A model generated the notes under the pieces. It searched no databases. It was given only the letters and a program-made list of their open reading frames with translations, and was not told the origin of the DNA. DNA of 64,000 nt from an uncultured Gammaproteobacteria bacterium (GTDB taxonomy: Bacteria > Patescibacteriota > Microgenomatia > Daviesbacterales > UBA10151). Shown in pieces: positions 6,149 through 62,934 of the stretch. The stretch's first letter is position 1. The number at the start of each line of letters is the position of its first letter. The stretch covers positions 13,585-77,584 of the forward strand of contig CAZAZW010000003.1 in assembly GCA_964489875.1 (NCBI GenBank), written 5' to 3'. The position numbers and the translations under genes were made by a program.

Positions 6149-6181
6149 TTTAGCCTACAACCTTTCAGGTTGCCGCACAAA
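6149..6181. repeat. 33-nt hairpin element (GCAACCT-TTC-AGGTTGC core), likely bidirectional terminator between the VOC gene and atpD
   Basis: tttagcctacaacctttcaggttgccgcacaaa. It matches 52915..52947 at 31/33 positions and is related to 21632..21662. Confidence 0.7.
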
Positions 6182-6299
6182 TTTTGGAATACTGTATTAG
6201 AGAAGGATTATTAAAAAGTCCTATCGCTGCCATTTGCGAAATAGAATCTGTAAAACAAGACGTATTAGAAGGCGGAGTTTTTGTTACGTAAAAACGAAT

Positions 6300-8580
<2,281 letters not shown>

Positions 8581-11007: not shown

Positions 11008-11075
11008 ACAGGGTACAGTGAACAGGTTACAGTAATCGCTAGAAAACTGTCACCTGTAACCTAAAACCTGTAACC
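11008..11075 (-). other. Intercistronic imperfect stem-loop directly after the atpE stop, arms built of CTGTAAC-type heptamers
   Basis: acagggtacagtgaacaggttacagt ... actgtcacctgtaacctaaaacctgtaacc. The inner 12 bp pair with one mismatch. Confidence 0.6.
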
Positions 11076-11330
<255 letters not shown>

Positions 11331-21636: not shown

Positions 21637-21662
21637 CCTGCAACCTGAAAGGTTGAGGCAAA
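21632..21662. repeat. Hairpin element related to the 33-mer family; contains the stop codon of the kinase-like gene
   Basis: tttagcctgcaacctgaaaggttgaggcaaa. The flank matches 6149..6181 but the loop is inverted (gaa versus ttc). Confidence 0.6.
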
Positions 21663-21716
21663 GGTTAAAGCACGAAATTCTAACAAAAATAGCCTGTTTT
21701 TAAACTCAATTTGTGC

Positions 21717-25060: not shown

Positions 25061-27148
25061 ATGGATTTGAAAACTTCACTCTCAGGTCTTACCGGAATTG
25101 GACCCGGGCTTTCATACAGGCTCAAAAGGCTCAATTTAAATACTATTGAGGACTTAATTTACCACTTTCCTTTTAGGTATGATGACTTTTCTAATACCAC
25201 TTCAGCCCTGGATGCCAAGATAGGGGAGAATGTAACGCTGCAAGGGGAGATTTGGTCTATCCAGAATATTTTTACCAGGTCCAGAAAAATCATCACCAAA
25301 GCCGTATTTAATGACGGCACCTCACCAATAGAGTTAACTTGGTTCCACTCCTCTTGGCTGACTAAACAAATCCAGACAGGTGACAGACTACAGGTTTCCG
25401 GAAAAGTCAGCAAGTATAAAAATAAGCTTTCAATCATTGCCCCACGCTGGGAAAAACTCACCGAGACATTGACCCGCCGACCCACTGATATACCAACCAT
25501 CCATACTGGAAGGCTTGTGCCAATATACCCTGAAACAGAAGGCTTAAGCTCTAAATGGCTGCGGACAAAAATAGATAAACTACTGCCCCTGGTTATAGAT
25601 GAAATCAGCGATCCCTTGCCAAACCAAATCAGAAATGGGATGCTAACACTGACACAGGCCATTCAGCAAGTCCATTTTCCGGAAGATATACAGCAAGCAG
25701 AAAAGGCTAGGGAAAGATTGGGTTTTGACGAGCTGTTTTTTGTTTCGCTTGCTACCCAAAAAGCCCGCATGGAATGGAAGAAAAAACCCATATTGGAACC
25801 GTTAAAAATTAACCCAAAAGACGTCAAGGATTTTACTGATCATCTACCTTTTAAATTAACCGGCGCCCAAGAAAAGGTCTTAAAAGAAATCTTAGATGAT
25901 CTTAAAAAAGATCAGCCCATGAATAGGTTAGTACAAGGAGAGGTAGGCTCAGGGAAAACTGTAGTAGCCACCATTATTGCCTATTTAGTCCACAAAAATG
26001 GCTTGCGTACCTTATTTATGGCTCCGACGGAAATTCTGGCCTTCCAGCATTTTGAGACACTTTCCAAACTTCTCAAACCTTTTGGGGTAACAGTGGGAAT
26101 ATATACTGGGAGCAAGAAGAGTCAAGAGTCAAGAGTCAAGAGTCAAGGAAAAAAGAAATCTAGACTCTCGACTCTAGCGACTAGCCACTATTCTGACATC
26201 ATCATCGGCACCCATGCCCTGCTGTCCCAAAAGCTTGCCACTAACAATGTCGGGCTAGTCATTATCGACGAACAGCAACGCTTTGGAGTGGAACAAAGAA
26301 CTCTGCTTCGTTCCAAAGCCAAAATCCCGCATTTTCTGACTATGACCGCCACCCCGATACCCAGAACCGTAGCGCTAACTTTATATGGAGATTTGGATAT
26401 GTCGGTTATTGATGAAATGCCGGTGGGACGACAAAAAGTGAAAACATATCTTGTCCCGGAAAAAAAGAGGCAGGATTCTTATAAATTTATCGCCAAAAAA
26501 GTAGCAGCGGGGGATCAAGTCTATATCATTACGCCCTTAATCGAAGCTTCGGAAACTTTAATCACGGTGAAGGCCGCCAAAGTGGAATTTGAGAAACTTA
26601 AAAAAGTATTCCCCACTTTTAGCCTGGATTTACTCCACGGCAGGATGAAAGGAGCTGATAAAGATGCTGTTATCAAAAATTTCCGCTCCGGACAAACGGA
26701 CATCCTGGTTTCCACTTCCGTAGTTGAGGTGGGCATGGATAACCCCAATGCCACCATTATTGTAATTGAAGGGGCGGAGAGATTCGGCCTGGCCCAGCTT
26801 CATCAACTTCGAGGAAGAGTTGGCAGAGGAGAAAAGCAGTCTTATTGCCTGCTTTACACATCAAATTTCTCAAGTGACGAAAGCAGGCGCCTGAAATATC
26901 TGGAAACTACTTTTGACGGCTTGAAGCTCGCTGAGTTAGATTTAAAAATCCGCGGCAGCGGGGAGATCTTTGGAACTATGCAGTCAGGTAGGTTTGAATT
27001 TAAAATTGCCAGTTTCAGCAATATCACACTGCTTGAAAAAACCAGGCAAGCAGCCAAAGAATTATTGGTCATAGATCCCACCCTTGACAAACACCCGCTG
27101 CTCAAGGCAAAATTACAGGATATCGCATCAGAAGTGATGCCTGATTAA
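25061..27148 (+). CDS. recG: ATP-dependent DNA helicase RecG
   Basis: 695 aa. Wedge domain, GEVGSGKTVVA, DEQQRFGV, TATPIPRT, QLRGRVGRG. Confidence 0.93.
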   Translation: MDLKTSLSGLTGIGPGLSYRLKRLNLNTIEDLIYHFPFRYDDFSNTTSALDAKIGENVTLQGEIWSIQNIFTRSRKIITKAVFNDGTSPIELTWFHSSWLTKQIQTGDRLQVSGKVSKYKNKLSIIAPRWEKLTETLTRRPTDIPTIHTGRLVPIYPETEGLSSKWLRTKIDKLLPLVIDEISDPLPNQIRNGMLTLTQAIQQVHFPEDIQQAEKARERLGFDELFFVSLATQKARMEWKKKPILEPLKINPKDVKDFTDHLPFKLTGAQEKVLKEILDDLKKDQPMNRLVQGEVGSGKTVVATIIAYLVHKNGLRTLFMAPTEILAFQHFETLSKLLKPFGVTVGIYTGSKKSQESRVKSQGKKKSRLSTLATSHYSDIIIGTHALLSQKLATNNVGLVIIDEQQRFGVEQRTLLRSKAKIPHFLTMTATPIPRTVALTLYGDLDMSVIDEMPVGRQKVKTYLVPEKKRQDSYKFIAKKVAAGDQVYIITPLIEASETLITVKAAKVEFEKLKKVFPTFSLDLLHGRMKGADKDAVIKNFRSGQTDILVSTSVVEVGMDNPNATIIVIEGAERFGLAQLHQLRGRVGRGEKQSYCLLYTSNFSSDESRRLKYLETTFDGLKLAELDLKIRGSGEIFGTMQSGRFEFKIASFSNITLLEKTRQAAKELLVIDPTLDKHPLLKAKLQDIASEVMPD
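26119..26184. repeat. Heptamer-periodic hairpin (GAGTCAA x4 ... TAGACTC TCGACTC TAGCGAC) inside recG
   Basis: gagtcaagagtcaagagtcaagagtcaagg-aaaaaagaaatc-tagactctcgactctagcgactag. Confidence 0.8.
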
Positions 27149-29132: not shown

Positions 29133-29413
29133 AAGACCTCTTAAACTTTATAGTCACCAATTTAGTCACCAAACCGGAAGCTGTAGTAATTGATGAGCAA
29201 AAGGAAGAGGGAGTAGTCAATCTGAATCTTACAGTTGATCCTAGCGATATGGGACTAATTATTGGTAAAAGCGGGCAAACAATCAGGGCTATTAGAAAAC
29301 TTTTAACAGTTAGGGCAATTGCTGAAAATATCAGAGTCAGCGTTCAACTGACCGAACCCCCTGGAGAGCTTAGAGTCGAAAGTCAAGAACCAAGTGCAGA
29401 ACCTGCTTCTTAA
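29129..29413 (+). CDS. KH-domain RNA-binding protein (YlqC/UPF0109 type)
   Basis: GLIIGKSGQTIRAIRKLL, and a position between rpsP and trmD. Confidence 0.85.
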   Translation: MKDLLNFIVTNLVTKPEAVVIDEQKEEGVVNLNLTVDPSDMGLIIGKSGQTIRAIRKLLTVRAIAENIRVSVQLTEPPGELRVESQEPSAEPAS

Positions 29414-29441
29414 CTGCTAGACTCCCAGCGCCCAGACTCTA
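29366..29441. repeat. GAGTC-type hairpin spanning the KH gene 3' end, its stop codon and the trmD start codon
   Basis: Left arm gagcttagagtcgaaagtcaagaac and right arm ctagactcccagcgcccagactcta. tagagtc and gactcta pair perfectly. Confidence 0.55.
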
Positions 29442-38654: not shown

Positions 38655-39124
38655 TGTTGGTTAGAGACACAATAGATATTACTGGGATTTTCACCAATTT
38701 CCAGCAGTGCGCAAACTTGAAAATTTGTGGTGTCGGCAGGAGGCGGCTGTACCCCTGTACCTGTAATTGGATTATTTAATGGTTCTGTAGTTGTCGGGCA
38801 TTGTGAAGTTACCGCCCATTCGCTTGGTTTACTAGGAAAAATAAAGTCCGTTCTGGAAATGATACAGTATTCAGCGATTCTGTTAGAAGGATCCGTAGGG
38901 ACCGATCCTTGGGCGAATTGACTATTTGCCAGCGGCTGGTAAGTAGTCGGCCCTTTATTAACCTCCAGCGCCTTTAAAATGGCATCAATATCACCCCTTC
39001 TTCTGCCGTCACGGGTCCTGGCTTGAACACTGTTATACGTACTAAAAGCCACCAGGGATAAAATCCCGATAATGGCAACCACTACCATTAACTCAATTAG
39101 TGTGAAGCCTCTATTCTTTTTCAT
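38651..39124 (-). CDS. Type IV pilin
   Basis: MKKNRG followed by FTLIELMVVVAIIGIL. The start is taken at ATG 39124, 1 nt after the upstream stop codon (39126-39128). Confidence 0.85.
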   Translation of the reverse strand: MKKNRGFTLIELMVVVAIIGILSLVAFSTYNSVQARTRDGRRRGDIDAILKALEVNKGPTTYQPLANSQFAQGSVPTDPSNRIAEYCIISRTDFIFPSKPSEWAVTSQCPTTTEPLNNPITGTGVQPPPADTTNFQVCALLEIGENPSNIYCVSNQQ

Positions 39125-39125
39125 T

Positions 39126-39683
39126 TTAACGGATTGTGTTTGACTTACAATATACTGTATTGCTTCTTTCAAGTACTGCACAGACTTTCCAACCCATAAT
39201 GTCAATATCTGTTAAATCATTCCCAGGACCTGTCCTTGTTAGTACAGTATTATTTGGAGCACTACCACCGACAGCGCCAATTATGCTCCATTGAACCGGA
39301 ACACTAGGACAAACGGCACCGGCAGCCCAGATTGGAGGATCCGAGCTGGAAGCTCCGTTCGGCGGGGTAGAAGTTGTACTAACCGCATAACAATACCTGC
39401 GATCTCCCGGATCAGCTAAACCAGCAGGATAATCCCTGGCCATAAGACTATTAGCCCCACCGGTGTAGCGATAAGACCCTGTCAAAGGATCCCTGGTTGA
39501 TTCAATATTCTTGGCTAATGAGTCAATTTCTGCTACTCTCCTGGAATCCCTGGCAGAACCCTGGGCACCGGAGAAAATGCCTAAAGCCACAACTGCTAGG
39601 ATACCGATAATGGCAATCACTACCATTAACTCAACTAAAGTGAATCCTGAAGTATCTTTAAAAATGGGCAGGAATTTTTTCAT
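39126..39683 (-). CDS. Type IV pilin, paralog A
   Basis: MKKFLPIFKDTSG followed by FTLVELMVVIAIIGILAVVALGIF. The C-terminus is VCAVLERSNTVYCKSN. Confidence 0.85.
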   Translation of the reverse strand: MKKFLPIFKDTSGFTLVELMVVIAIIGILAVVALGIFSGAQGSARDSRRVAEIDSLAKNIESTRDPLTGSYRYTGGANSLMARDYPAGLADPGDRRYCYAVSTTSTPPNGASSSDPPIWAAGAVCPSVPVQWSIIGAVGGSAPNNTVLTRTGPGNDLTDIDIMGWKVCAVLERSNTVYCKSNTIR

Positions 39684-39774
39684 AAGTGCTAACTATTTAA
39701 TAGTTACATAACTAAAAAAGCCTGTCAATGTATGAGAGTAAAATAAAAGATTTGAGAGTTACTGAATTCAGCGA

Positions 39775-40329
39775 TTACTGAATAACATTTGTCCTGCAGA
39801 ATACCGTGTTGCTTCTCTCAAGAGTAGCACAAACTCTCCAAGCTCTTGTAGCAGTACCACCAGTGTTCCCATCAGCTACATCATTATTGTTGCCCGCAGT
39901 TGTTCCTACAGTAGAGTTTGGAGTCCCAGCGACACCGCCAATAGCGGGATAATTAGTAGGACATGCGCCAGTACCAGTATTCCAAGGGGTCGGGACAGCT
40001 GGAAGATTAGCATTAGTGGTTGCTGCTGCCTGACAATATGAAATTGCCGGGGTTGTACCACCCGGGTCAGCTAAACCATTAGGGTAATCTCTAAGCATGA
40101 TAGCACTTGTATATTGATAATTTCCTGTTCCTGGATCCCTGGTTGATTCAATATTCTTGGCTAATGAGTCAATTTCTGCTACTCTCCTGGAATCCCTGGC
40201 AGAACCCTGGGCTCCGGAGAAAATACCTAAGGCCACAACTGCCAAAATTCCAATAATGGCAATCACTACCATTAACTCAATCAGGGTAAAGCCGGAGGTA
40301 TTTTTAAAAATGGGCAGTGATTTTTTCAT
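39775..40329 (-). CDS. Type IV pilin, paralog B
   Basis: MKKSLPIFKNTSG followed by FTLIELMVVIAIIGILAVVALGIF. The C-terminus is VCATLERSNTVFCRTN. The start is taken at ATG 40329. Confidence 0.85.
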   Translation of the reverse strand: MKKSLPIFKNTSGFTLIELMVVIAIIGILAVVALGIFSGAQGSARDSRRVAEIDSLAKNIESTRDPGTGNYQYTSAIMLRDYPNGLADPGGTTPAISYCQAAATTNANLPAVPTPWNTGTGACPTNYPAIGGVAGTPNSTVGTTAGNNNDVADGNTGGTATRAWRVCATLERSNTVFCRTNVIQ

Positions 40330-40421: not shown

Positions 40422-41330
40422 TTATCTACCTAGTCTCAAATACCAATCAATAATTTCCCGACCCCAAAAAAGCATGATTAAACTTCCCAACACTAAAAAG
40501 GGTCCAAAAGGGATAGTTTGACCAAAATGCTTTTTACCAACAGCAATAAGTCCTACTGAAAATATAGCACCTGTTAAAAATGATAAGACTAAAGCAAATA
40601 GCGCTTGCGGAAATCCCAGCATTATCCCTATAAATGCCCCCAGCTTAACATCCCCTCCGCCCATCCCTTTTCCACGGGTTATAATTATTAAACCCATAAA
40701 AAACCCACCTATTATTAAGGCTGTTAATATTGAACCAAAAAGGGGCTGGGCAGCTGCCAAAGCATGCCTTTGAAAATAATCACTTTGTGGAGGAAGAAGT
40801 TTTTGACCTACAAGAGTTTGAGATAAGGAGTAGTAAAGATATCCTATCTTATATAAAGTAATTGCCAATAGGAAAGAGGCCCCAATCCAAATAGCCGGAA
40901 TCACCACTCTATCCGGAATAAACATCTTTTTTAGGTCTGTCAAAAAAAGTATAGCCAAAACTGTTATGAAGAAAAGTTTATAAACAAGATCCGATAAAAG
41001 AATTGATAACTGAAAAACAGATTGCCACGTCGCTTCGCTCCTCGCAATGACAGCCGAGGTCTGCCAAAATAAAAACCCTATTAACACTCCCATTCCCACT
41101 TCCACTAATAGATATCCGATACCGATCTTCTTGTGGCAATATCTGCACTTTCCCCGAAGTATCAAAAAAGAGAAAATAGGGAAAAGGTCGTACCATGCCA
41201 GCTTGTGCCGGCATTTTGGACAGTACGACCTTCCCCAAAAAGATTTCTTACCTAAACTTCGGTCAGCGAGCGCCTTAACCAAGCTTCCCAAAACCATACC
41301 AATTAAAAACCCCGCTGACCCCCAAATCAT
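40422..41330 (-). CDS. pilD: Prepilin peptidase / N-methyltransferase
   Basis: CPKCRHKL..CRYCHKKI zinc motif, multi-TM body, GGGDVKL. The track start 41342 is GTG; an ATG lies at 41330. Confidence 0.88.
   Translation of the reverse strand: MIWGSAGFLIGMVLGSLVKALADRSLGKKSFWGRSYCPKCRHKLAWYDLFPIFSFLILRGKCRYCHKKIGIGYLLVEVGMGVLIGFLFWQTSAVIARSEATWQSVFQLSILLSDLVYKLFFITVLAILFLTDLKKMFIPDRVVIPAIWIGASFLLAITLYKIGYLYYSLSQTLVGQKLLPPQSDYFQRHALAAAQPLFGSILTALIIGGFFMGLIIITRGKGMGGGDVKLGAFIGIMLGFPQALFALVLSFLTGAIFSVGLIAVGKKHFGQTIPFGPFLVLGSLIMLFWGREIIDWYLRLGR
41019..41051. repeat. 33-bp half-copy of the GTCATTGCGA-type element inside pilD
   Basis: agattgccacgtcgcttcgctcctcgcaatgac. It matches the right half of the murC copy and encodes VIARSEATWQS. 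Confidence 0.7.
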
Positions 41331-45962: not shown

Positions 45963-46597
45963 ATGATTGCAAGGCTTTTAATTTCACCTGATTTGGAAAA
46001 AAGGGTAGAGGAGATCAAAAATATTTTAGCTTCCCACTTGACGAGTGGGAATACGAATCACCCGGATTTGCTATACATCAAAGATGGAGAAAAACTTGGG
46101 ATTGCAGAGGCCAGAAAGATAAAAGAACATTTTTCCTTAAAACCTTACTGCGCCAAAGGCAGGGTGGTAGTTTTAGAAGATGCATCGCCGTTAACCATTG
46201 AGGCTCAAAATGCCCTGTTAAAAACTTTAGAAGAATTACCTGAGGAGGCAACTTTAATCTTAGGAGCTACTTCAGATGCCAATTTTTTGCCTACAATCCT
46301 ATCGCGCTGCCGGGTTATCCATCTGGAAAGCGCAGTTTCTCATCCTAGTTCAAAGACAGACTTCACTCAGGACATCACAAAACTCCTTTCAGCTGATATG
46401 GAAGAAAGGTTTGGGTATATTGAAGGATTGAAAAATAAAGAAGGATTTTTAAAGGCATTGTTATTTTATTTCCATCAGGATGTATATAAAAACAAGGACT
46501 TTTTAGCAAAACTTTTACAAGCAGAAGAGTGGGCCAAACATAATGTCAATATTCGGGCAATTTTGGAATATTTAATGCTGGAAATGCCAAAGAAGAA

Positions 46598-46616
<19 letters not shown>
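45963..46616 (+). CDS. holB: DNA polymerase III delta-prime-like subunit, short form
   Basis: 217 aa. VVVLEDASPLTIEAQNALLKTLEELPEEATLILGA and ILSRCRVI. Confidence 0.75.
46031..46051. repeat. 21-nt hairpin TTCCCACT-TGACG-AGTGGGAA inside holB (the exact reverse complement occurs at 56541..56561)
   Basis: ttcccacttgacgagtgggaa, encoding SHLTSGN. Confidence 0.85.
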
Positions 46617-48758
<2,142 letters not shown>

Positions 48759-49374: not shown

Positions 49375-50856
49375 ATGGCTACAAAAGTACATTTTTTGGG
49401 TATTGGAGGCTCAGGCGCTTCAGGGGCAGCGGCTATTACGGAGGCTCAAGGCTTTGAGATCACCGGCTGTGACCTGGAACCCAACAATGAATTTACCACT
49501 ATTTTCAAACCAGACCAACTCCTCGTTGGACATTCCCCAGATCACATATTCCGTCATTGCGATCCGGCGAAGCCGGAGAAGCAATCTAGTTTGGAAGATA
49601 ACCCTACCAAGATTGCTTCGTCGCCTACGGCTCCTCGCAATGACGATGAGAATAACCATAACGATAGAACAATAGATATTCTGGCAGTCACTCCGGCCAT
49701 TTTTTCTTTAGACCCCAGTAACCCTGAACTTTTGGCAGCCAAAGAAAAAGGCATACCAGTAATTACCTGGCAACAATTTGTTGGTCAGTATCTGACCAAA
49801 GACAAATTTGTCATTGCCATTTGCGGCACCCACGGCAAAACCACTACCACAGCCATTATTGGCCAGTTATTAGAAGATGCCGGGATGGACCCGACAGTAC
49901 TTCTTGGAGCCATCGTCCCCAAATGGGGCACAAACTATCGCATACCTCGACAAAAAGTTCACGATCGTGAATATTTTGTCATAGAGGCAGACGAGTTTAA
50001 TGATAACTTTCTACCTACCAAACCTGATATTGCAGTAGTCACTAATATCGAAATGGACCACCCGGAATATTTTAAAGACTTTGAGACGGTTAAAGATAGC
50101 TTTAAAAGGTTTTTACTACAAACCAAACAAGCTGTGGTAGCTAACATGACTGACCCAGGAGTAGCTGAAGTTATGAAAGTAGTGATGAAAACGCCACATC
50201 AAATTTCCTCCGGCCGTGGGATATTTGAAACATATTTAGATTATTCCAGGAATGAACTGGGCATAAACTTACAGGTCCCCGGGGAATTTAATCGGTTAAA
50301 TGCCAAAGCTGCCATGGCGGTAGGGCTCTTGCTGGGAATAAAACCAGACACTATTAAAAAAAGTCTGGCAAACTTTACAGGAGCAAGCAGAAGGTTTGAA
50401 TATATCGGAGAATTTAATGGTGCAAAAGTTTATTCTGATTTTGGCCACCATCCGACGGAAATCGAAAAAACTATGGAAGCAGTTAGAGAAAAGTTTCCTA
50501 AGGAACGAATTTTACTGGTTTACCAACCACATATGTTTTCCAGAACCAAGGCTCTATTTAATGATTTTGTAAAAGTATTCCAAGATATTGCGGCTGATAA
50601 GCAAAGCTTGAAATTCTCGCAACGCTCGAATTTTAAAACTTTTATCCTGGATATTTACGCATCAAGGGAAGTGGATACTGGCTTAGTAACCAGCAAACAG
50701 CTTGTAGAAACCATTAACAAACCATCCGTATCATACCTGGGAGCTGTCCCAGGTTCCCTGGAAAAAATTAAGCCGGAAATTAAATCAGGGGATATTGTCT
50801 TTTTTATGAGCGCCGGAGATACTGATAAATTAGCTAAAGAACTAGTGGATTCCTAA
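49375..50856 (+). CDS. murC: UDP-N-acetylmuramate--L-alanine ligase
   Basis: VHFLGIGGSGASGAA, ICGTHGKTTTTAIIG, and a Mur ligase C-terminal domain. Confidence 0.9.
   Translation: MATKVHFLGIGGSGASGAAAITEAQGFEITGCDLEPNNEFTTIFKPDQLLVGHSPDHIFRHCDPAKPEKQSSLEDNPTKIASSPTAPRNDDENNHNDRTIDILAVTPAIFSLDPSNPELLAAKEKGIPVITWQQFVGQYLTKDKFVIAICGTHGKTTTTAIIGQLLEDAGMDPTVLLGAIVPKWGTNYRIPRQKVHDREYFVIEADEFNDNFLPTKPDIAVVTNIEMDHPEYFKDFETVKDSFKRFLLQTKQAVVANMTDPGVAEVMKVVMKTPHQISSGRGIFETYLDYSRNELGINLQVPGEFNRLNAKAAMAVGLLLGIKPDTIKKSLANFTGASRRFEYIGEFNGAKVYSDFGHHPTEIEKTMEAVREKFPKERILLVYQPHMFSRTKALFNDFVKVFQDIAADKQSLKFSQRSNFKTFILDIYASREVDTGLVTSKQLVETINKPSVSYLGAVPGSLEKIKPEIKSGDIVFFMSAGDTDKLAKELVDS
49553..49644. repeat. 92-bp GTCATTGCGA...TCGCAATGAC element inside murC
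   Basis: Perfect 10-bp terminal inverted repeat, inner agcaatct/agattgct inverted repeat, and a ccgg-cgaag-ccgg hairpin. Confidence 0.8.
50211..50232. repeat. 22-nt exact repeat inside murC (other copy at 6125..6146)
   Basis: cggccgtgggatatttgaaaca, encoding SGRGIFET. Confidence 0.8.
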
Positions 50857-53331
50857 CTTTTTAACCCAATCCTTAAACTGGTTTCCCCGATCTTCATAAT
50901 CCTTAAATAAATTAAAACTGGTTGAAGCAGGGGAAAGGAGGCAAATTTTTCCTGACTTAGTTTGCGCAAAAGCAATTTTTACAGCTTTTCCCATATCCGA
51001 AACATCAAACTTCTTGGGCAGTTTCTTGGAATATTTACAAACGGAATTCCAGATTTTTATTCCCGTATCCGGGAAGAGTATTAAAGTTTTAATATTAGAT
51101 TTTGCAATAGCCTCTCCCAGAAAGGAATAATTCAAACCTCGATCAAATCCACCGGCAATTAAAGTTTCCACATTTTCACCCAAAGCAGTCAGTGCCGCTG
51201 CAGTGGCTTGAGGGATAGTAGAAAGCGAATCATTATAGAACCTGATACCTTGAGCTTCTGTTACAAATTCTAATCTATGCGGCAAAGGCTTAAAATTGAT
51301 AATTGCTTCTTCAATTCTATTGTCTGCCACTTTAAATAATCTGCCCACAACTATGGCAGGTACCACATTTAATAAATTAAAATCTCCCAAAAGAGGAATT
51401 GTATCTTTGTGAATTAAATCCAAAACCATTTGCCTGTTCTTTTTGGAAAAGGAGATTTTGTTGGCTTTACTTTCCTCAGCAATCACTCTCAGCTCAGGAA
51501 TTTCTTGATTATAAATTAAATAATCTTCCTTCGTTTGAAACTTGGTGATATTATTTTTTGCCCTGATATAAAAAGGAAAATCTTTGTGATGATCTAGATG
51601 CTCAGGATAAATATTAGTCATTACGCCGATATGGGGACTTCTTTCTAAATCTTCTAATTGAAAAGAGGATAGTTCATAAACCACCACTGATTTTTCATTT
51701 AACTGATCCAATAAATCCAAAGCCGGCTTGCCAATATTACCAATTAAATGAACATCTATTCCACCATTTTTCAATACTTCATATATCAAAGAGGCAGTCG
51801 TGCTTTTACCCTTAGTACCGGTTACCCCGATAATTTTCCCTTTAAAATTATCAAAGAAAATCTGTGTAGCAGAGGTAATAATTTTGCCTTGCCTTTTTGC
51901 TTGTTCTATCTCCGGCAGATAGGGAATACCGGGGGATTTTATGATGACATCATAATCTTTTAACTTTTCTAAATAATTCTCTCCATCATTTTTATCAGAG
52001 ATATCAATTTTCTTGCCCGGAAAATGCTTTTCAAAAAACTTTAGAGTTGCTTTACCTTCTCTGCCAAAACCTAAAATCAAAATTTTTTGGAAATATTGTA
52101 AAACTGTGGGGATTTTCTGTTTATCTTTTTTAGCTCTTTCAATCCCTAAAGAAATGGCAGTTTTTATTTCCAGAGCAGTAGCTACACACTCAAATGGTTT
52201 AACTTCATTATTTTCACGAAGCAATCCACGAACCAGTGATATCAAGCTCTCGTCTTCCAGTAGATTCTTACCAAATATTTTCTTAAGTTTGCTTCCCAAA
52301 AAGGGATAGAGCAAAAGATAAGTGGAAACACACTTCGGGCACTTACCACACCATATTCCTTGTTTTGAGCCTTTGTTACAGCTTCTAAATAACTTATGAT
52401 ATTTCTCCATCTTTGAGAACTTTTCACTTATTTGCAATTCACCAAAATTTCTTAAGAAGCTAAAGTAATTGGCAGAGGAAGACAGATAATTCTTAGAGTA
52501 ATCCCTAAAATCCTGCTCAAATTCTGAGGTCTTGGAATATTGGTGATTAATTTCCTGGCCAAGCCAGTCCACATTTCCTTCATTAGAGGAGACTTCATTG
52601 GAAACCACTAGATTTTTGTAATCATATAAGACTCCGGCAAAGGTGGATAGGAAAGCAAGGTATGCAGAAAAAGGGGTGTGGCCGTTCAAATAACCTTGCT
52701 TATTAAGCTCCAGCAACTTGGGGTCTATTATCCTTTTTATTATGATCGGATTTTTACAACCTCCAACTTCTGCAATTTTGATTGCCGCTTCAGTCGGATT
52801 TAAGATTAGACAGTTGAACTCTTTCCCTTTTTGACTGATAGATTCCAGTGTTACAACCGAATCTTTACCACCTCCAATTAAAACCAAATCCCGGTCTTTC
52901 AAGCTGCCATCATATTTAGCTTGCAACCTTTCAGGTTGCCGCACAAACTCAACAATATTTTCTTCAGTAAAATCTATTTTGTTGTTGTAGAAAAATTCTC
53001 CCAAACCTTTTATTAACAGATTCTTCCAAAAGGCAATTTGATTATCACCTAGGGAGCCTGCTTTAATAACAATTTGCGGAGGGCAAGCTACTTTCCAATA
53101 ACTCAATAACTCAATCATGCCCAAATTAAATACCAGATTTTGCAGGACTTCCGGGCCAATTTCATCAAGCCTCTCCATTGAAACATTAGGCAGTATAACT
53201 TCCGGGTTGAATTTAATATCAGGAGCAAGAAGAAAATCAAAAATTATCTTTAAATTTCCCTGCCCAAGCTCAGTTTCATAGCCTTTATAGATAAACCGGC
53301 TATGTTTTTTCCTCAATTCATTAAAATTCAT
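50842..53331 (-). CDS. murD: Fusion protein: N-terminal PP-loop-like domain (about aa 1-415) + UDP-MurNAc-L-Ala--glutamate ligase MurD (about aa 415-829)
   Basis: N-terminal part: LIGGGKDSVVTLE and CGKCPKC. C-terminal part: ILILGFGREGKA and GVTGTKGKSTTASL, with a Mur ligase fold. Confidence 0.8.
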   Translation of the reverse strand: MNFNELRKKHSRFIYKGYETELGQGNLKIIFDFLLAPDIKFNPEVILPNVSMERLDEIGPEVLQNLVFNLGMIELLSYWKVACPPQIVIKAGSLGDNQIAFWKNLLIKGLGEFFYNNKIDFTEENIVEFVRQPERLQAKYDGSLKDRDLVLIGGGKDSVVTLESISQKGKEFNCLILNPTEAAIKIAEVGGCKNPIIIKRIIDPKLLELNKQGYLNGHTPFSAYLAFLSTFAGVLYDYKNLVVSNEVSSNEGNVDWLGQEINHQYSKTSEFEQDFRDYSKNYLSSSANYFSFLRNFGELQISEKFSKMEKYHKLFRSCNKGSKQGIWCGKCPKCVSTYLLLYPFLGSKLKKIFGKNLLEDESLISLVRGLLRENNEVKPFECVATALEIKTAISLGIERAKKDKQKIPTVLQYFQKILILGFGREGKATLKFFEKHFPGKKIDISDKNDGENYLEKLKDYDVIIKSPGIPYLPEIEQAKRQGKIITSATQIFFDNFKGKIIGVTGTKGKSTTASLIYEVLKNGGIDVHLIGNIGKPALDLLDQLNEKSVVVYELSSFQLEDLERSPHIGVMTNIYPEHLDHHKDFPFYIRAKNNITKFQTKEDYLIYNQEIPELRVIAEESKANKISFSKKNRQMVLDLIHKDTIPLLGDFNLLNVVPAIVVGRLFKVADNRIEEAIINFKPLPHRLEFVTEAQGIRFYNDSLSTIPQATAAALTALGENVETLIAGGFDRGLNYSFLGEAIAKSNIKTLILFPDTGIKIWNSVCKYSKKLPKKFDVSDMGKAVKIAFAQTKSGKICLLSPASTSFNLFKDYEDRGNQFKDWVKKLGIH
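52915..52947. repeat. 33-nt hairpin element inside the murD-fusion ORF
   Basis: tttagcttgcaacctttcaggttgccgcacaaa, encoding VRQPERLQAK on the gene strand. Confidence 0.8.
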
Positions 53332-55787: not shown

Positions 55788-57195
55788 AATTTTTCCTATT
55801 ATCGACCATCTTTATATTTACCAAATTTTGGAGTACAAATCCGGGGAATTTTTAATCTGGTTTTTGAAAAACCCTTTCAAAAGAAATTTACAAAAGAAAC
55901 ACAAACTTGAATGGACTCAAAAAGCCAAGCTGCTGGCTTTCTTTGGTATCACATTACTGATTTTAGATTCAGTGATAACCTCTTATCTATTAACCGGCAA
56001 ATTCTGGCTAAGCTTGATTTTGTTACCAGTAAAATCTTTGTATTCACCGCTATTTATAGTAGTTTCCCAAATTTTAATTTCACCTCTGGAATATTATCAA
56101 AAACAAAGAACACTTAGAGCAGCAAAAAAGAAACTATCGAAATTACCTAATTTAAAAATTGTCGCCATCACCGGTTCCTTTGGCAAAACTTCCACCAAAG
56201 ATATCCTCTATACACTGCTTTGGAAAAAATATTTTGTGGTCAAAACTCCCAAAAGCTTTAATACTCCTTTGGGAATTGCCCAAACCATTCTGGAGAACCT
56301 CAAAGAAAATACGGAAGTTTTCATCTGTGAAATCGGCGCCTACAAAAGAGGAGAGATTAAAAATCTGACTAAATTTCTTAATCCAAGAATAGGCATTATC
56401 ACTGCAATCGCCCCGCAGCACCTTGAACGGTTTGGGTCTTTGGAAAATATTGCCAAGGCTAAATTTGAACTGGTAGAAAACCTACCCAAAAACGGAGTTA
56501 CCATCCTAAATAACAAAAGCAATTGGTTACAAAAACTGGCTTCCCACTCGTCAAGTGGGAACGTAATTTTTTATGGAGATGAGAATAATCCATTTTATGC
56601 ATCTAATATCAGAACGGGAATCGTAGGAACTACTTTTCAAATCCACACCCCTAAAGGCCAAACAGAGATTAAGATACCCTTGATAGGAGAACACCATGTT
56701 CAAAATTTCTTAGCAGCTACTGCAGCTGCTCTAGCGTTAGGTTTAACTCTTTTTGAAATTAAAGGAAGGGCAAAATTGTTGTTGCCAACCCCACATAGGA
56801 TGGAGATTAAAAAAATGGGTAATATTATTTTAATTGATAACTCATTTAATACTAATCCAAAATCAGCCGAAGCATCTTTAAGTTTGCTAGCAAGTTTTAA
56901 AGAAAACAGGAAAATTGTTATAACCCCTGGGTTTGTGGAATTAGGGAAAGAAGCTGCTGAAGCAAATCAAGAATTTGGCCACGAAATTCTCTGCTTAGCA
57001 GACGAAGTCATAATTGTTGGAGAAAATGCCAAAAAGGATTTACTAGAAGGCATGAAAGATATTTATCCAAACCCAGAAGAATTCGTCCATTTTGCTAAAA
57101 GCACCCAAGAAGCATTAGTTCTTGCCCAGGAATTAACCCAGGGCATGGAAACAGTAGTACTCCTGGAAAACGACCTGCCAGACCAATATAGTTAA
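55768..57195 (+). CDS. murF: MurF-like Mur ligase with a membrane-spanning N-terminus
   Basis: AITGSFGKTSTKDIL, HVQNFLAATAAALALG, GFVELGKEA. Two predicted TM helices replace the usual N-domain. ATG 55738 is an alternative start. Confidence 0.8.
   Translation: MSKILSKIFPIIDHLYIYQILEYKSGEFLIWFLKNPFKRNLQKKHKLEWTQKAKLLAFFGITLLILDSVITSYLLTGKFWLSLILLPVKSLYSPLFIVVSQILISPLEYYQKQRTLRAAKKKLSKLPNLKIVAITGSFGKTSTKDILYTLLWKKYFVVKTPKSFNTPLGIAQTILENLKENTEVFICEIGAYKRGEIKNLTKFLNPRIGIITAIAPQHLERFGSLENIAKAKFELVENLPKNGVTILNNKSNWLQKLASHSSSGNVIFYGDENNPFYASNIRTGIVGTTFQIHTPKGQTEIKIPLIGEHHVQNFLAATAAALALGLTLFEIKGRAKLLLPTPHRMEIKKMGNIILIDNSFNTNPKSAEASLSLLASFKENRKIVITPGFVELGKEAAEANQEFGHEILCLADEVIIVGENAKKDLLEGMKDIYPNPEEFVHFAKSTQEALVLAQELTQGMETVVLLENDLPDQYS
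56541..56561. repeat. 21-nt hairpin TTCCCACT-CGTCA-AGTGGGAA inside murF (reverse complement of 46031..46051)
   Basis: ttcccactcgtcaagtgggaa, encoding SHSSSGN. Confidence 0.85.
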
Positions 57196-58391: not shown

Positions 58392-59000
58392 ATGAAAAAT
58401 CTTTTCTTAAGACCAAATGATCCGCGCTTAAGAAAAGTTGCTGAGGAAATTCCTCAAGACCAAATTAATTCAGAGAGTACTAAAAAAATAATTAAGACCA
58501 TGCTAAAAGTGGTCCAACCATTTATGGTAGGACTGGCTGCACTACAGATTGGCATTCCTAAAAGGATCATCTTGGTAGATATAAGAGCAGACGGAAAAGG
58601 CCCGCTTCGCCAGCGAAGCGAGGCGGGCAAAGTAGGAAATTTGCGAATATACATCAACCCAAAAATAATCTGGAAATCTAAAAGAGAAGGGGAGTGGTAT
58701 GAGGGTTGTTACTCCACCGGCAGAGTTTGCGGCATAGTCTCCCGTCCAATCTCCATCAAAATCCAAGCATTTGTATTGACACCCCAAGGGTGGAGCCTCA
58801 AATTTGTAGAAGAAAAGCGGTCAGATTATACAGCCAGGATTTTTCAGCATGAAATTGACCATCTTGATGGGAAGTTATTCATGGACCATATTAAAAATCC
58901 GGACCATCTACATTGGGTAGAAGAAAATGAATTTCCGCTTTACAGAAACAAACAAGCCTGGAGAAATTGGCCCAAAAAATACCCTTTACCCCTTGCTTAG
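58392..59000 (+). CDS. def: Peptide deformylase
   Basis: GLAALQIGIPKR, EGCYS and HEIDHLDG. The start is taken at MKNLFLRPNDP. Confidence 0.88.
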   Translation: MKNLFLRPNDPRLRKVAEEIPQDQINSESTKKIIKTMLKVVQPFMVGLAALQIGIPKRIILVDIRADGKGPLRQRSEAGKVGNLRIYINPKIIWKSKREGEWYEGCYSTGRVCGIVSRPISIKIQAFVLTPQGWSLKFVEEKRSDYTARIFQHEIDHLDGKLFMDHIKNPDHLHWVEENEFPLYRNKQAWRNWPKKYPLPLA

Positions 59001-59060
59001 AGAAGGCCAAAAAAGGTATAATTAAGCCAGAGCGAAAGCTCGTTTTTCTTTTAAATCTAC

Positions 59061-61616
59061 ATGTCAAACATCGGCAAAATACAACCAGCCCCAATTATTG
59101 AAGAGATGCAAAAGTCCTATTTGGACTATGCCATGTCTGTCATTGTTTCAAGAGCATTACCTGATGTCCGTGACGGCCTGAAACCTGTCCAGCGAAGAAT
59201 TATTTATGCCATGCACCAACAGGGTTTGCACCACAGTTCCCGTTTTCAAAAATCAGCTGCCGTAGTCGGAGAAGTTATGAAAAACCTCCACCCGCACGGT
59301 GATGCCCCTATATATGAGGCCATGGTCAGAATGGCCCAGAATTTTTCCATGAGATATATGTTGGTGGACGGACAAGGAAACTTTGGATCAATTGACGGAG
59401 ACTCTCCGGCTGCGATGCGTTATACCGAAGCCAGGCTATCGGCAATTTCCGAGGAACTCCTTCGTGATATCAGCAAAAACACAGTTAATTTTATTGATAA
59501 TTATTCCGGTACCACCCAAGAACCAATACTTCTGCCTTCTGTCATTCCCAATCTACTCCTAAACGGCGCCTCCGGTATTGCCGTTGGCATGGCCACCCAG
59601 ATCCCGCCTCATAATTTAGGGGAGGTCTGTGACGCGCTGGTCTACATGATAGAACACCCAATGAAAGAGTCAAGAGTCAAGAGTCAAGAGTCAAGTGACG
59701 AAAAAGAAGATACTAGACTCTCGACTCTAGCGACTAGCGACTCTTTTCAATCCGAAGCTACTGTTGAAGACCTTATCAAATTTGTCAAAGGCCCGGATTT
59801 TCCCACGGGTGCCTCTATTTATGACCAAACCGAAATACTGGCAGCTTATGCTACCGGCAAAGGCCGGATCGTCATGCGAGCCAAAGCCGAAATTGATGAA
59901 ACCCCGGCCGGAAAAATGCAAATCATTGTTTCAGAGCTACCATATCAAGTAAATAAAGCTACTCTAATTGCCAGAATTGCCGAGCTGGTTAAGGACAAAA
60001 AGTTAGAGGGTATCGCGGATCTCAGGGATGAATCAGATCGCAAACAAATGGTCCGAATCGTTTTTGACCTAAAAAGGGATGCCAAACCGCAAGCAATTTT
60101 AAATAACCTCTACAAACATACAGCTATGCAGTCGGTTTTCAACGTTAACTTAGTGGCGCTAGTTGACGGCGTACCACATCTCCTAACCTTAAAACATATC
60201 CTGGAGGAGTTTATTCATCATCGGCAAGTTGTTGTCAGGAAACGCTCGGAATTTGAACTGGCAGAAGCCAAAGCTAGAGAACACATCTTAGAAGGCTTAA
60301 AGATTGCAGTTGATAACATTGATGCTGTCATCGAAACAATCAAGAAGTCAAAAGATGCAGATGCAGCCAAAACCAATTTGATGACCAAATTTAAACTATC
60401 CGAACTCCAGGCTCTGGCAATTTTGGATATGCAGCTTCGAAGGTTAGCCGCACTGGAGCGGCAAAAAATTGAAGATGAGTTAAAGATGGTCCGGGAAACA
60501 ATCGCCTATTTGGAAGACTTATTAGCTCATCCTGAGAAAATCTTAAAAGTCATCAAAGATGAACTGACAAGAATAAAAGAAAAATACGGAGACGACAGGA
60601 GAACCCGGGTTTATAAACAAAAAATAGGGGAGTTTAACGAAGAAGATTTAGTGCCGAATGAGGTCACCATCGTTACTATTACCGAAGGCGGTTACATCAA
60701 GCGCCAATCTCCAATGTCTTTTCGGACCCAACAGCGGGGCGGTAAAGGGGTCATGGGTATCGCCACTAAAGAAACCGATGCAGTCTCTCATATTTTCTAT
60801 ACTCAAACCCACGACAGCATTCTCTTTTTTACCGATAAAGGTCGAGTTTTTCAAATTAAAGTTTGGGAAATTCCGGAAACTCAAAGAGCAGCTAAAGGAC
60901 AGGCTATCGTTAATTTAATCAATGTGGAGCAAGGAGAAAAGATTACCGCTGTTTTAACCACTCGCCAAAAAGGTGAGAGCGCCCGATATTTCTTTATGTG
61001 TACCAAAAAAGGCACTGTCAAAAAAACTGCCGTTTCAGAATATGCTAATATCAGAAAGAATGGTTTGGTAGCTATCAAATTAGATACAGGTGATGAATTG
61101 GGGTGGGTATCGGCTACCTCCGGCAAGGATGATTTAATCATCGTTTCAAGAGCCGGCAAATCCATACGTTTTTCAGAGACACAAGTTAAACCCACCCACC
61201 GGGATACTTCCGGGGTAAGAGGTATCAGGCTCGGCAAAGATGACGGGGTTGTATCACTCAATCTTGTACAAAAAGATGCCCAACTTTTGGTGATTATGGA
61301 AAATGGTTTGGGTAAAAAAACGGCCTTTTCTGCCTGGAGCAGACAGGGCAGGGGAGGACAGGGGGTAAAAGCTGCCCAGGTAACAGCCAAAACCGGACCG
61401 ATTGTGACAGCACAAGCAGTGGATGGCAAAATGGATACTTTGGTTCTCACTTCCACCAAAGGACAACTCATTAAAATGGATCTTAAACAGGTACCTATTT
61501 TGCAACGGCAGACTCAAGGTGTAATCTTGATGAGAGTCAGACCCGGTGAGAAGGTGGCAGCTGCCACAGTGGTGGCGTCTAAAGAAAAAACTGAACAATC
61601 AGAACCTAAAGCATGA
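59061..61616 (+). CDS. gyrA: DNA gyrase subunit A
   Basis: 851 aa. [26 protein letters not shown], and C-terminal beta-pinwheel repeats. Confidence 0.96.
59667..59743. repeat. Heptamer-periodic hairpin (GAGTCAA x4 ... TAGACTC TCGACTC TAGCGAC TAGCGAC) inside gyrA
   Basis: Both arms are near-identical to the recG copy. Confidence 0.8.
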
Positions 61617-61822
61617 AGAAATCCTCTATTATCTCCACTATAGGAATAATTTACTTTATTGCAGGATTTGTTTTTGCCGTGGCTTTTGCCATCTATTACC
61701 GCTGGCCAATTTTATCTTTTTTATCTCCGGGATTTTATAGCGTAATTTTAACCTGGCCCTTCCAGGCAATTGGCTTTGCAAGAGACCTCCTAATTTACGG
61801 CCTCGCCGGCAAACCTATATAA
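61613..61822 (+). CDS. Small two-TM membrane protein
   Basis: 69 aa, with an ATGA overlap with the gyrA stop. Confidence 0.45.
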
Positions 61823-61831
61823 TCCTATAGT

Positions 61832-61860
61832 TTGACACGGATCTTCGAATATTCTATAAT
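61832..61860 (+). promoter_or_regulatory. Perfect consensus sigma70 promoter TTGACA-17 nt-TATAAT, 9 nt upstream of ATG
   Basis: TTGACAcggatcttcgaatattcTATAATacagcctctATG. Confidence 0.65.
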
Positions 61861-61869
61861 ACAGCCTCT

Positions 61870-62934
61870 ATGAAGCTTGTCGAAATTAGCTCTTTAGAGC
61901 AATATAGAAATATGCGTTTAGATACTCCTATTACCTTTAAGGACCGAGTCTTACATCTAAAATCTAGCACTGCTGCGACTCTGAAAGCGACTGAAGCTCA
62001 AATACCGGCAGAGAATGGTGGTTTAGTGTATCAGTTGGCAGTAAGACACCATACAAATACTAGTCTTACCCAGCTTGCTAAAGATTTAAGTGTTAATAGA
62101 AAAACAATTTCTGCTCTTTTTGATTTTTTTGGGATTCCAAAATTATCCGGTAGAGAAGCTTTAACTAGAAAATGGGAGCAAGATCCAACCTTTAGAAGCT
62201 GGCATGAAAATCATGCAGCAAATGTTCTGAACGATCCGAATTCGAAAGATGATAAACATGATACAAGAAAAGCTCATTTAGAAAAACAAATGCAAGACCC
62301 GGAATTTGAGAAGGCAAGGTTAGATGGTTTGAGGGAAAAAAGCAAGGATCCTGCATACCTTGCAAAAAGAGGAAGAGCAATTGCGGCCAACTGGGAGGAT
62401 CAGAAGTTTAGAGATGCTCACGAAGAAACCGAAAGAATAAAATTAGCATCGTTAAAACAGGATCCTGGATTTCGATTGAGCCAGGCTCACGGAATTAGAA
62501 ATTCTAATCGAATACCAAAGTGTTCAATACAAGGAGAAAGGATTGATATCGGGTTTGCACAGTCAACATATGAGGCTAATATAGCAAGAATATTAACACT
62601 TGTTGGTGCTGATTTTCAGCGCGGATTGGCGTTCGCTTTACAACCAGAGGAGAAAAGCGAGAAACTAACAGCTCTTACTTTAGATTTTGTAGTAAATATA
62701 AAAGGTAGACAAAAAATTTATGAAATTGTGACAGGAAGAAATATTCGCAGATTACAACTTTTAGAAATGCTCGCAACACAAAACCCAAAACTTAGAATTA
62801 ATATTATTACAGAAAGACGGTATAGAAGATTAAGAGGAATGTTTCAAGATAGAATAAATAATGATCCGAGATTCGCTGGATGGGAAACACCAAAAGACAA
62901 TTTAAGAACTAATCCAACAAGATACGCAGCTTGA
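61870..62934 (+). CDS. Orphan protein: HTH-like segment, five DPxF(R/E) helical repeats, possible nuclease-like C-terminus
   Basis: LTQLAKDLSVNRKTISALF. Repeats QDPTFRSW, QDPEFEKA, KDPAYLAK, EDQKFRDA and QDPGFRLS. C-terminal ..LTLDFVV..IYEIVTG. Confidence 0.5.
   Translation: MKLVEISSLEQYRNMRLDTPITFKDRVLHLKSSTAATLKATEAQIPAENGGLVYQLAVRHHTNTSLTQLAKDLSVNRKTISALFDFFGIPKLSGREALTRKWEQDPTFRSWHENHAANVLNDPNSKDDKHDTRKAHLEKQMQDPEFEKARLDGLREKSKDPAYLAKRGRAIAANWEDQKFRDAHEETERIKLASLKQDPGFRLSQAHGIRNSNRIPKCSIQGERIDIGFAQSTYEANIARILTLVGADFQRGLAFALQPEEKSEKLTALTLDFVVNIKGRQKIYEIVTGRNIRRLQLLEMLATQNPKLRINIITERRYRRLRGMFQDRINNDPRFAGWETPKDNLRTNPTRYAA

Follow-up and report, generated by a model that had tools for sequence, protein, structure and literature searches.

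A heptamer-array palindromic repeat inserted in frame in gyrA of Candidatus Daviesbacteria

Main finding

The gyrA gene on a 64-kb stretch of contig CAZAZW010000003.1 (assembly GCA_964489875.1; the whole stretch is called the window) contains an imperfect hairpin of 77 nt at 59667–59743 (+ strand). It consists of four GAGTCAA heptamers, a loop of 18 nt and a right arm of 30 nt. The hairpin lies in frame in the gene and belongs to a dispersed repeat family. We consider it likely that it is a small non-autonomous palindromic repeat, dispersed in Candidatus Daviesbacteria and translated in frame within genes, of the type of the Rickettsia palindromic elements (RPEs) and the repetitive extragenic palindromes (REPs).

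The insertion in gyrA

The host open reading frame (ORF; 59061–61616, + strand) is uninterrupted and 851 aa long, and the element lies in frame inside it. The ORF encodes GyrA: an identical protein is recorded with PF00521 and PF03989, and the nearest named relatives are annotated as DNA gyrase subunit A of Candidatus Daviesbacteria (orthologue P0002 is 94% identical). A separate exact look-up of the window GyrA returned no record. In an alignment to the Protein Data Bank, B. subtilis GyrA (4ddq) was matched with E = 2e-176. A sequence-only reading of the window had reported a GAGTCAA hairpin at this position of gyrA. The sequence and the intact 851-aa ORF confirm this, and the encoded peptide, read from the ORF translation, is the one written there.

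A total of 120 Daviesbacteria GyrA proteins were compared. A basal spacing (..MIEHP(D/E)ATVEDL.., 27 residues from PPHN to GPDFP) was found in about 30 of them, and the remaining proteins had 3–56 extra residues at exactly the same point. Hence, the segment is an insertion, as the sequence-only reading had proposed. The empty-site gyrA DNA of L038 and L042 reads CAC CCT GAG/GAT GCT ACT, which sets the window insertion to 59661–59753 (Table 1). In the solved GyrA structures, query residues 201–230 were unmatched and the flanks join at residue 202 of 4ddq, in agreement with the proposed placement before the GPDFPT motif. In a weak AlphaFold2 model (shallow alignment, mean predicted local distance difference test score, pLDDT, of 61), residues 204–226 were coil with pLDDT <50. 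This is compatible with an exposed, disordered loop, but does not prove it; the insert is presumably located at the protein surface.

The gyrA region folded with −35.6 kcal/mol (z = −4.35), and none of 200 shuffled sequences was equally stable. The z-scores were −2.8 for the copy in recG and −3.1 for the intergenic copy of the window, and they ranged from −2.8 to −4.5 over the copies folded. The stem is imperfect, with GAGTC/GACTC blocks of 5–6 bp each and mismatched bases between them. AAAG...CTTT flanks extend the stem, and the AAA of the left shell pairs with TTT at 59744–59746.

The repeats are not expected by chance. With up to one mismatch, GAGTCAAGAGTCAAG had seven matches in the window (0.00 expected from 100 shuffles), and the 22-nt right-arm pattern had three (0.00 expected by chance). 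In total, the window holds three exact copies and one degenerate copy of the GAGTCAA family. The left arm of the gyrA copy is identical to that of the recG copy over 29 nt, as had been stated before. The right arms are identical over the first 25 nt. Here, the sequence-only reading had counted one extra heptamer in gyrA, which was incorrect: both right arms have four heptamer-length units, of which the last shows three substitutions between the copies (GACTC versus CACTA). The loop is 18 nt long in gyrA and 13 nt in recG.

The dispersed family and its coding rule

The family was scanned with the 22-nt right-arm core as an exact match in one genome per prokaryotic species. The core was found at 34 loci in about 14 genomes (10 loci came from one genome), and all loci with informative host names were from Daviesbacteria. 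As an exact right arm was the search criterion, the apparent conservation of these loci (L001–L034) is inflated. An nhmmer search with a profile of 30 copies added more diverged copies as well as copies with the left arm only or the right arm only. Given these single-arm copies, the architecture is similar to that of inverted doublets whose repeat units also survive singly as remnants. A metagenome scan for the coding-type arm gave three matches, all of them gyrA orthologues.

Fifteen copies, including two of the window, were intragenic and lay inside long ORFs of ten different genes. The host genes were named from conserved motifs in their translations: GyrA, RecG, DNA polymerase I (PolA), UvrA, DnaX, ThyA and Fpg-like, LeuRS-like, CarA-like and TsaD-like proteins. 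The earlier remark on DNA-metabolism genes has some substance, with further copies in polA, uvrA, dnaX, fpg-like and thyA; LeuRS-like, CarA-like and TsaD-like genes are hosts, too.

All 15 intragenic copies had the same orientation and the same right-arm frame (..SRLSTLATS..), without stop codons. Of the six frames of the coding-type consensus, a single one is open, and the stop codons in the other five account for the single orientation and frame within genes. In the intergenic type (CTTGACTCTAGACTC...TAGTCACTA), none of the six frames is open. Genes hold only a coding-competent variant of the right arm, with CTAGACTCTCGACTC in place of CTTGACTCTAGACTC: every intragenic copy has TCG where most intergenic copies read TAG. 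This split suggests that a coding-competent subfamily exists or that the same change was selected repeatedly.

Among the single-base variants of GAGTC in left arms, GAATC made up 21 of 39, meaning that GANTC tends to be retained. GTGAC variants break GANTC. Methyltransferases of the CcrM and HinfI classes recognise GANTC.

Insertion hot spots in gyrA and recG

Depending on the lineage, the codon boundary in gyrA, like another one in recG, is occupied by one of at least five unrelated hairpin families. The inserts of L039, L040, L041 and L043 (Table 1) were all predicted to fold, with −23 to −42 kcal/mol, and the peptide signatures of the hairpin families at this site recurred across the 120 GyrA proteins. 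All filled gyrA sites share a shell (HP-x-K ... F-x-S-x-ATVEDL; in DNA, NNN AAR ... TTY NNN TCY). GAGTCAA copies in other genes are without a shell of this type. The simplest history of the gyrA site is one old insertion, the interior of which was replaced later.

In L037 (P0023), the GAGTCAA element lies beside a different resident insert, and the relatives P0032 and P0040 carry the resident alone. This indicates a separate arrival of the GAGTCAA element. In L008 (7105–7240), a fragment of another palindrome family, about 62 nt long, sits within a GAGTCAA copy, with the direct repeat TTGAC on either side of the fragment. This is direct evidence of nested insertion.

RecG gave a similar picture. 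A basal linker of eight residues after TGS was found in 44 of 105 homologues, and the others carried 10–60 residues, which came from several families; GAGTCAA was one of them, in part as deletion remnants such as KKSLETSHYPN. In one genome (CAZKCV01), the gyrA and recG sites hold different hairpin families. Genome-wide concerted evolution as the cause of different sequences at the same site was rejected on this ground, and the polA orthologues, which retain shared variants, also count against it. Covariation between the window and JACPDA was seen at one position only. After removal of the insert, 112 GyrA proteins were placed in a neighbour-joining tree, in which empty and filled sites were interleaved; the tree was poorly resolved, and no counts of gain and loss were drawn from it.

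Seven GyrA proteins (P0054, P0067, P0070, P0074, P0076, P0094 and P0098) are about 1260–1350 aa long and contain intein domains (PF14528 and PF14890). The gyrA gene of Daviesbacteria/Microgenomates thus hosts inteins as well as hairpin inserts.

Inheritance of the gyrA copy

The closest relatives (L035, L006, L027 and the metagenome contigs L045 and L046) carry the same family at the same gyrA site. The loop of L035 is also 18 nt long, with two substitutions relative to the window, and the shell is common to all five orthologues. According to the loop match and the same-site relatives, the gyrA copy of the window was inherited. The proteins P0002, P0003 and P0034 likewise carry the inherited insert. 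The sequence-only reading had named ancestral protein sequence in sister genomes as a point that would refute it. This applies in part: the insert is inherited among the closest relatives, but the segment is an inserted repeat and not original GyrA sequence.

Intergenic copies

In 19 of 22 intergenic copies, representing about 14 independent sites, an ORF on the same strand begins with its ATG 6–20 nt past the right-arm core. The upstream gene often stops at the first TAG of the left arm, and some intergenic loci carry the right arm alone. In L004, L025 and L026, the 5′ foot of the stem carries a Shine-Dalgarno-like sequence (AAGGAG/GGAGG; AGGAG/GGAGG) and the 3′ foot the ATG, so that the folded stem would juxtapose the two. 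A comparable juxtaposition is the split ribosome-binding site of phage T4 gene 38.

The + strand scan of the intergenic right arm found no sigma-70-like promoter: TTGACT is present, with no acceptable −10 at 16–18 nt. A promoter for a leaderless mRNA was ruled out by the spacing. The polarity could reflect strand-specific insertion of a single strand or a role in expression. All four window copies are on the + strand with + genes (the window has 20 genes on + and 32 on −), and their strand does not discriminate between these two.

Table 1. Coordinates of the gyrA insertion, its parts and related features (window positions unless a locus is named)
Feature	Position	Strand	Remarks
Whole insertion relative to empty-site gyrA	59661..59753	+	93 nt, 31 codons; CCA (Pro200) before, GAA GCT (Glu-Ala) after
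Left shell ATG AAA	59661..59666	+	Outside the GAGTCAA family; form NNN AAR in every filled gyrA site
Left arm (GAGTCAA)x4 (59667-59694) plus G at 59695	59667..59695	+	Open in 3/3 forward frames
Loop TGACGAAAAAGAAGATAC	59696..59713	+	18 nt, A-rich; length and sequence differ among copies
Right arm TAGACTCTCGACTCTAGCGACTAGCGACTC	59714..59743	+	Best-conserved part of the family; open in 1/6 frames only (RLSTLATSD)
Right shell T TTT CAA TCC (F-Q-S)	59744..59753	+	Homologous to TTY NNN TCY of gyrA with other hairpin families
Paralogous copy in recG, in frame	26117..26190	+	recG ORF 25061-27148; arms compared over 26119-26190
Intergenic-type copy between holB-like ORF and gyrB	46594..46664	+	Stops in all frames; holB-like stop inside left arm
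Degenerate intergenic copy before trmD	29365..29440	+	Right arm (..CCAGACTCT) abuts trmD ATG at 29441; nhmmer E = 7e-4
Variable slot next to gyrA	window 61870-62934; L035 12839-13534; L036 6218-6901; L039 6195-6869; L038 5708-7465; L041 5790-6395		
Other gyrA-site inserts			L039, CGTC-type palindrome; L040, (CAGTCGT)x4 and partner arm
Other gyrA-site inserts			L041, GACCGAC/TACCGAC array; L043, GTACCACGA repeats

Proposed mechanism and points against it

The element has a short loop between two arrays of four heptamers each, which are inverted relative to one another, similar to a REP doublet (REPIN) or a miniature inverted-repeat transposable element (MITE). The gyrA copy would be transcribed and translated with the gene, adding about 31 hydrophilic, probably unstructured residues before GPDFPT, and GyrA presumably tolerates them. 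At this site, an older insertion may have left the short shell (xK...FxS), inside which different hairpin families then replaced one another. The family most likely spread via single-stranded hairpin intermediates, through a transposase of the HUH/Y1 type (similar to the REP-associated tyrosine transposases, RAYTs), with hairpins as targets. Gene conversion between copies may add to the spread.

In L036 and L039, the gene immediately downstream of gyrA encodes a Y1/HUH protein of 224–227 aa (HFHFLL, RYIHLNP), which in L021 is encoded beside uvrA; the protein passes the Pfam model Y1_Tnp. As a mobiliser, it is a lead and not evidence. TA flanks many copies, but may simply belong to the heptamer unit. 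In the sequences compared, no insertion sequence (IS) with matching ends was seen; whole genomes were not searched.

Several observations weigh against the proposed explanation. No transposase is encoded within the 64-kb window. The Y1 proteins scored 37–45 bits against the NCBIfam RAYT model, which has a cut-off of 80, and no hairpins flank the Y1 genes, so no repeat-flanked RAYT was found. At the gyrA boundaries (CCA/ATG...TCC/GAA), there was no clear target-site duplication. The translation of the insert with gyrA is deduced solely from the maintenance of the ORF, in 15/15 copies. In the RNAalifold analysis of 30 copies, only the innermost heptamer pair was supported, with no compensatory changes, and selection on the long hairpin as such can therefore not be claimed.

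Moreover, the element is conserved better than its host gene. Its identity among the orthologues was 85–95%, compared with 75–85% for the surrounding 1.2 kb of gyrA. The third codon positions of the flanks were 40–68% identical, and the excess of identity ends at the element edges. This would not be expected of an insertion that is purely passive and decays. The right arm matched the window at 30/30 positions in L035 and 29/30 in L037, which were loci fetched by protein and not by motif. Nucleotide-level selection, conversion from other copies or re-insertion are possible causes. A recombination tract from another species was rejected, as the elevated identity stops at the element edges. Likewise, the strict polarity of the intergenic copies and their abutment to start codons are not obviously predicted by a purely selfish element.

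A variable slot lies between gyrA and a conserved pair of genes of about 91 aa (Table 1), and it holds a different gene in nearly every genome. In the window, this is a 354-aa ORF without a Pfam or NCBIfam match; two relatives have the Y1/HUH transposase there. Possibly, the slot beside the gyrA hairpin hot spot is a slot for mobile genes.

Alternative explanations

A more active scenario is tentative, and we rate it well below the explanation as an RPE/REP-like repeat. Hairpins of a superfamily of heptamer arrays and other palindromes would insert repeatedly into hairpins at a few permissive codon boundaries of essential genes (gyrA, recG and others), with each arrival replacing the resident inside the shell. 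In addition or instead, the GANTC array of the right arm would act as a polar cis-signal, maintained through selection, biased gene conversion or uptake. The cis-signal would explain why the right arm is better conserved than the gyrA codons and why it is placed directly before start codons.

It is rather unlikely, though somewhat less so than the readings discussed below, that the element is a functional nucleic-acid signal instead of selfish DNA, with a polar right arm of GANTC heptamers and in-gene copies kept for their function. Such a signal could be a protein-binding or methylation array, a signal for mRNA processing or translation beside start codons, or an uptake or recombination signal similar to the DNA uptake sequences (DUS) and uptake signal sequences (USS). 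DUS are enriched in replication and repair genes. The GAGTCAA host genes are likewise rich in such functions, as is known for the hosts of intragenic REPs (PMC3733652). The conservation above the gyrA codons is confined to the element, with the right arm kept at 30/30 (L035) and 29/30 (L037) positions, and the 22-nt right arm is exact in 34 loci of about 14 species-level genomes; for L001–L034, however, the exact-match ascertainment inflates this conservation. The right arm lies 6–20 nt before a same-strand ATG in 19/22 intergenic copies, some loci have the right arm only, and AGGAG/GGAGG and ATG stand at opposite stem feet in L004, L025 and L026. A sigma-70-like promoter was not detected in the right arm. 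GANTC is mostly kept (GAATC in 21/39 variants), but the GTGAC variants break it. The copy density is about 1 per 16–90 kb, compared with about 1 per kb for uptake signals, and LeuRS-like, CarA-like and TsaD-like genes are also hosts. Many unrelated hairpin families occupy the same sites, which means that the sites do not need the GAGTCAA sequence.

The sequence-only reading had described the hairpin as terminator-like in two DNA-metabolism genes. As an intrinsic terminator or attenuator, it would cause regulated premature termination, which is very improbable. The hairpin is stable (−35.6 kcal/mol, z = −4.35), CTTTTC follows directly after the gyrA copy, and the same element stands between genes upstream of gyrB. 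However, a consensus terminator scan of 58900–61900 did not flag it. The stem is broken every 5–6 bp, without an uninterrupted G+C-rich stem and U-tract; the four T's after the gyrA copy (CUUUUC) pair with AAAG at the stem base, and the recG copy is without any T-run. Translating ribosomes would unwind the hairpin, and quite different hairpins occur at the same codon in other lineages. The open-frame rule (15/15 copies) would be unnecessary for a terminator and is expected if the copies are transcribed and translated through. The terminator interpretation of the gyrA hairpin is wrong.

Removal of the segment before the mature protein, by RNA excision, translational bypassing or protein splicing, is hardly credible either. 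Bypassing has precedents in T4 gene 60 and the yeast mitochondrial byps, and in Magnusiomyces mitochondria, hairpin-shaped mobile inserts in coding genes are bypassed. Removal would lift the constraint on frame, orientation and stop codons, and the strict frame rule therefore argues against it: the intragenic copies keep one open frame and have lengths that are multiples of three. Furthermore, there is no stop codon after a take-off codon, and the insert has only 31 aa and no intein motifs. No intron or other known RNA family was found by Rfam, which gave no match at the gathering score in the whole window and none at E ≤ 1 around the element.

Finally, GyrA of many bacteria vary in loop length, but an ordinary lineage-specific low-complexity loop with a coincidental or artefactual likeness to recG can practically be dismissed: the gyrA and recG arms are identical at 54/54 nt with 0 chance matches expected, the same element occupies the same site in independent assemblies (L006, L027, L035, L037, L045 and L046), misassembly seems unlikely for a 77-nt element that is probably shorter than typical reads, and the shuffle tests and the 34-locus scan refute coincidence.

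Comparison with known repeats

As summarised where PMC10969869 cites Ogata 2000 and 2002, RPEs are inserted in frame in Rickettsia genes. Like RPE-1 to RPE-10, the GAGTCAA elements are short dispersed palindromic repeats of a small-genome bacterium, in frame in many unrelated housekeeping genes. They share with RPEs a conserved peptide per copy, supposedly tolerant surface regions and the presence of intergenic copies. Dispersal, palindromy and in-frame insertion with insert-free homologues were all found, which places the family in the same general kind. The elements are set apart by their length (about 75 nt versus about 100–150 bp), arms made of 7-nt unit arrays (GAGTCAA / GACTCTA), a separate closed-frame intergenic subtype, the reuse of one codon boundary by several unrelated families, the lack of a CGTC head (the tag of RPE-4 and RPE-6), the apparent absence of any relationship in sequence and unrelated hosts of a different phylum (candidate phyla radiation).

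Intragenic GTAG/CGTC REPs were described by Di Nocera et al. in several phyla, with a concentration in genes for replication and repair such as uvrA and polA, and two Xanthomonas species have different REPs at about the same recB site (PMC3733652). As with REPs and REPINs, we found two inverted units around a short spacer, single-unit remnants, a location mostly between genes of the same direction, in-gene copies concentrated in genes for replication and repair, and Y1/HUH transposase genes in related genomes. REP doublets (REPINs) are said to be mobilised by RAYT transposases, as reportedly described by Bertels and Rainey in 2011. Here, the Y1 genes are not repeat-flanked and fall below the RAYT cut-off. 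Unlike REPs, the units have no GTAG/CGTC head; in the 30-copy alignment, they begin with (T/A)AGAGTC, and a G precedes TAG in few copies. Each unit is a heptamer array and not a small palindrome.

Bacterial MITEs (Correia/CREE, ERIC, Nezha and CIR) are also small, non-autonomous and hairpin-forming. They sometimes form in-frame fusions, and promoters, sites for processing or GANTC methylation sites are present in some of them. GANTC sites occur in CIR. CIR is listed as a Caulobacter CcrM-associated intergenic repeat in PMC10969869. The GAGTCAA arms are inverted repeats, but terminal inverted repeats and a target-site duplication were not demonstrable at the gyrA copy, and no parent IS is known.

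Coding palindromes within genes are known from Nematomorpha mitochondria (PMC6649704). Similar to these and to the GC-cluster and byp inserts of yeast mitochondria, the hairpins lie in essential genes, in frame or tolerated. The organellar cases differ: the Nematomorpha arms are perfect and long, and byps are bypassed by the ribosome, whereas the frame rule argues for translation here.

DUS and USS of Neisseria and Pasteurellaceae are conserved short motifs, often in inverted pairs, with preferred frames in genes and a bias towards genome maintenance. The GAGTCAA family shares conservation beyond neutral drift, inverted pairs, the in-gene frame preference and the genome-maintenance bias. Unlike DUS and USS, it is roughly 10 to 100 times rarer per kb, and many families compete at the same sites. 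Daviesbacteria are not known to show uptake specificity.

By sequence, the repeat appears to be in no described family; it would represent a new family among the translated palindromic repeats of the RPE/REP type, which are a known kind, and would extend them to a new phylum. The literature searched contained no account of such elements in bacteria of the candidate phyla radiation. Three features go beyond the known kind and deserve follow-up: the turnover of several families at fixed codon boundaries, the conservation above that of the host gene and the polar placement before start codons.

Other repeats in the window

At least eight palindromic inserts lie inside long ORFs of the window, including those in gyrA, gyrB and recG. 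A CGTC-tagged palindrome of 94 nt at 49552–49645 (CGTCATTGCGA...TCGCAATGACG, −45.6 kcal/mol) is in frame in a 495-aa ORF on the + strand (..HCDPAKPEKQSSLEDNPTKIASSPTAPRNDD..). In other Daviesbacteria, inserts of this family (VIASEAKQS...PRNDN) occupy the hot spots of gyrA and recG. Another palindrome family is represented at 7936–8012 (TGTCATTCCCGCGCAGGCGGGAATCC ... GGGATGACA, −34 kcal/mol), in frame in a 310-aa ORF on the − strand. Partial arms of a GTCATT-type palindrome were found at 48446–48500 in gyrB (ATG at 46704, stop at 48758) and at 41018–41052 in a 307-aa ORF on the − strand (AVIARSEATWQS). Accordingly, gyrB appears to carry an in-frame repeat remnant, too.

A 23-nt hairpin, GCTTCCCACT(N5)AGTGGGAA, occurs in frame at 46029–46051 in the holB-like gene (LASHLTSGN) and at 56541–56563 in a 492-aa ORF (LASHSSSGN). 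The peptide ASHxSSG is also present at the RecG hot spot in P0167, P0172, P0182 and P0190. Direct repeats in three copies with TTTAGCCTRCAACCTTTCAGGTTGCCGCA (a small hairpin, CAACCT TTC AGGTTG) are located at 6149–6198, 21632–21681 and 52915–52964. A hairpin with heptamer-like ACAGGTT/AACCTGT arms at 11010–11076 has no long spanning ORF and may be another heptamer-array family. In addition, small genes in tandem duplication lie at 39045–40329; they share a conserved hydrophobic segment at the N-terminus and look like paralogues of type IV pilins or pseudopilins.

Implications

Genomes of the candidate phyla radiation have about 1 Mb, and the assumption is that they are streamlined, with little mobile DNA. 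The inserts affect annotation, as they cause spurious length variation and apparent low-complexity loops in core proteins, and they affect phylogenetics based on GyrA or RecG. They also bear on the tolerance of essential enzymes for repeated insertions of 20–60 aa at one loop. A site hit by at least five families, with nested intermediates kept, is a natural experiment on how REP/RPE-type repeats choose their targets and move. If either the replacement of hairpins by hairpins or the cis-signal were true, the inserts would not be passive junk but a feature that an ultra-small bacterium maintains in its genome-maintenance genes.

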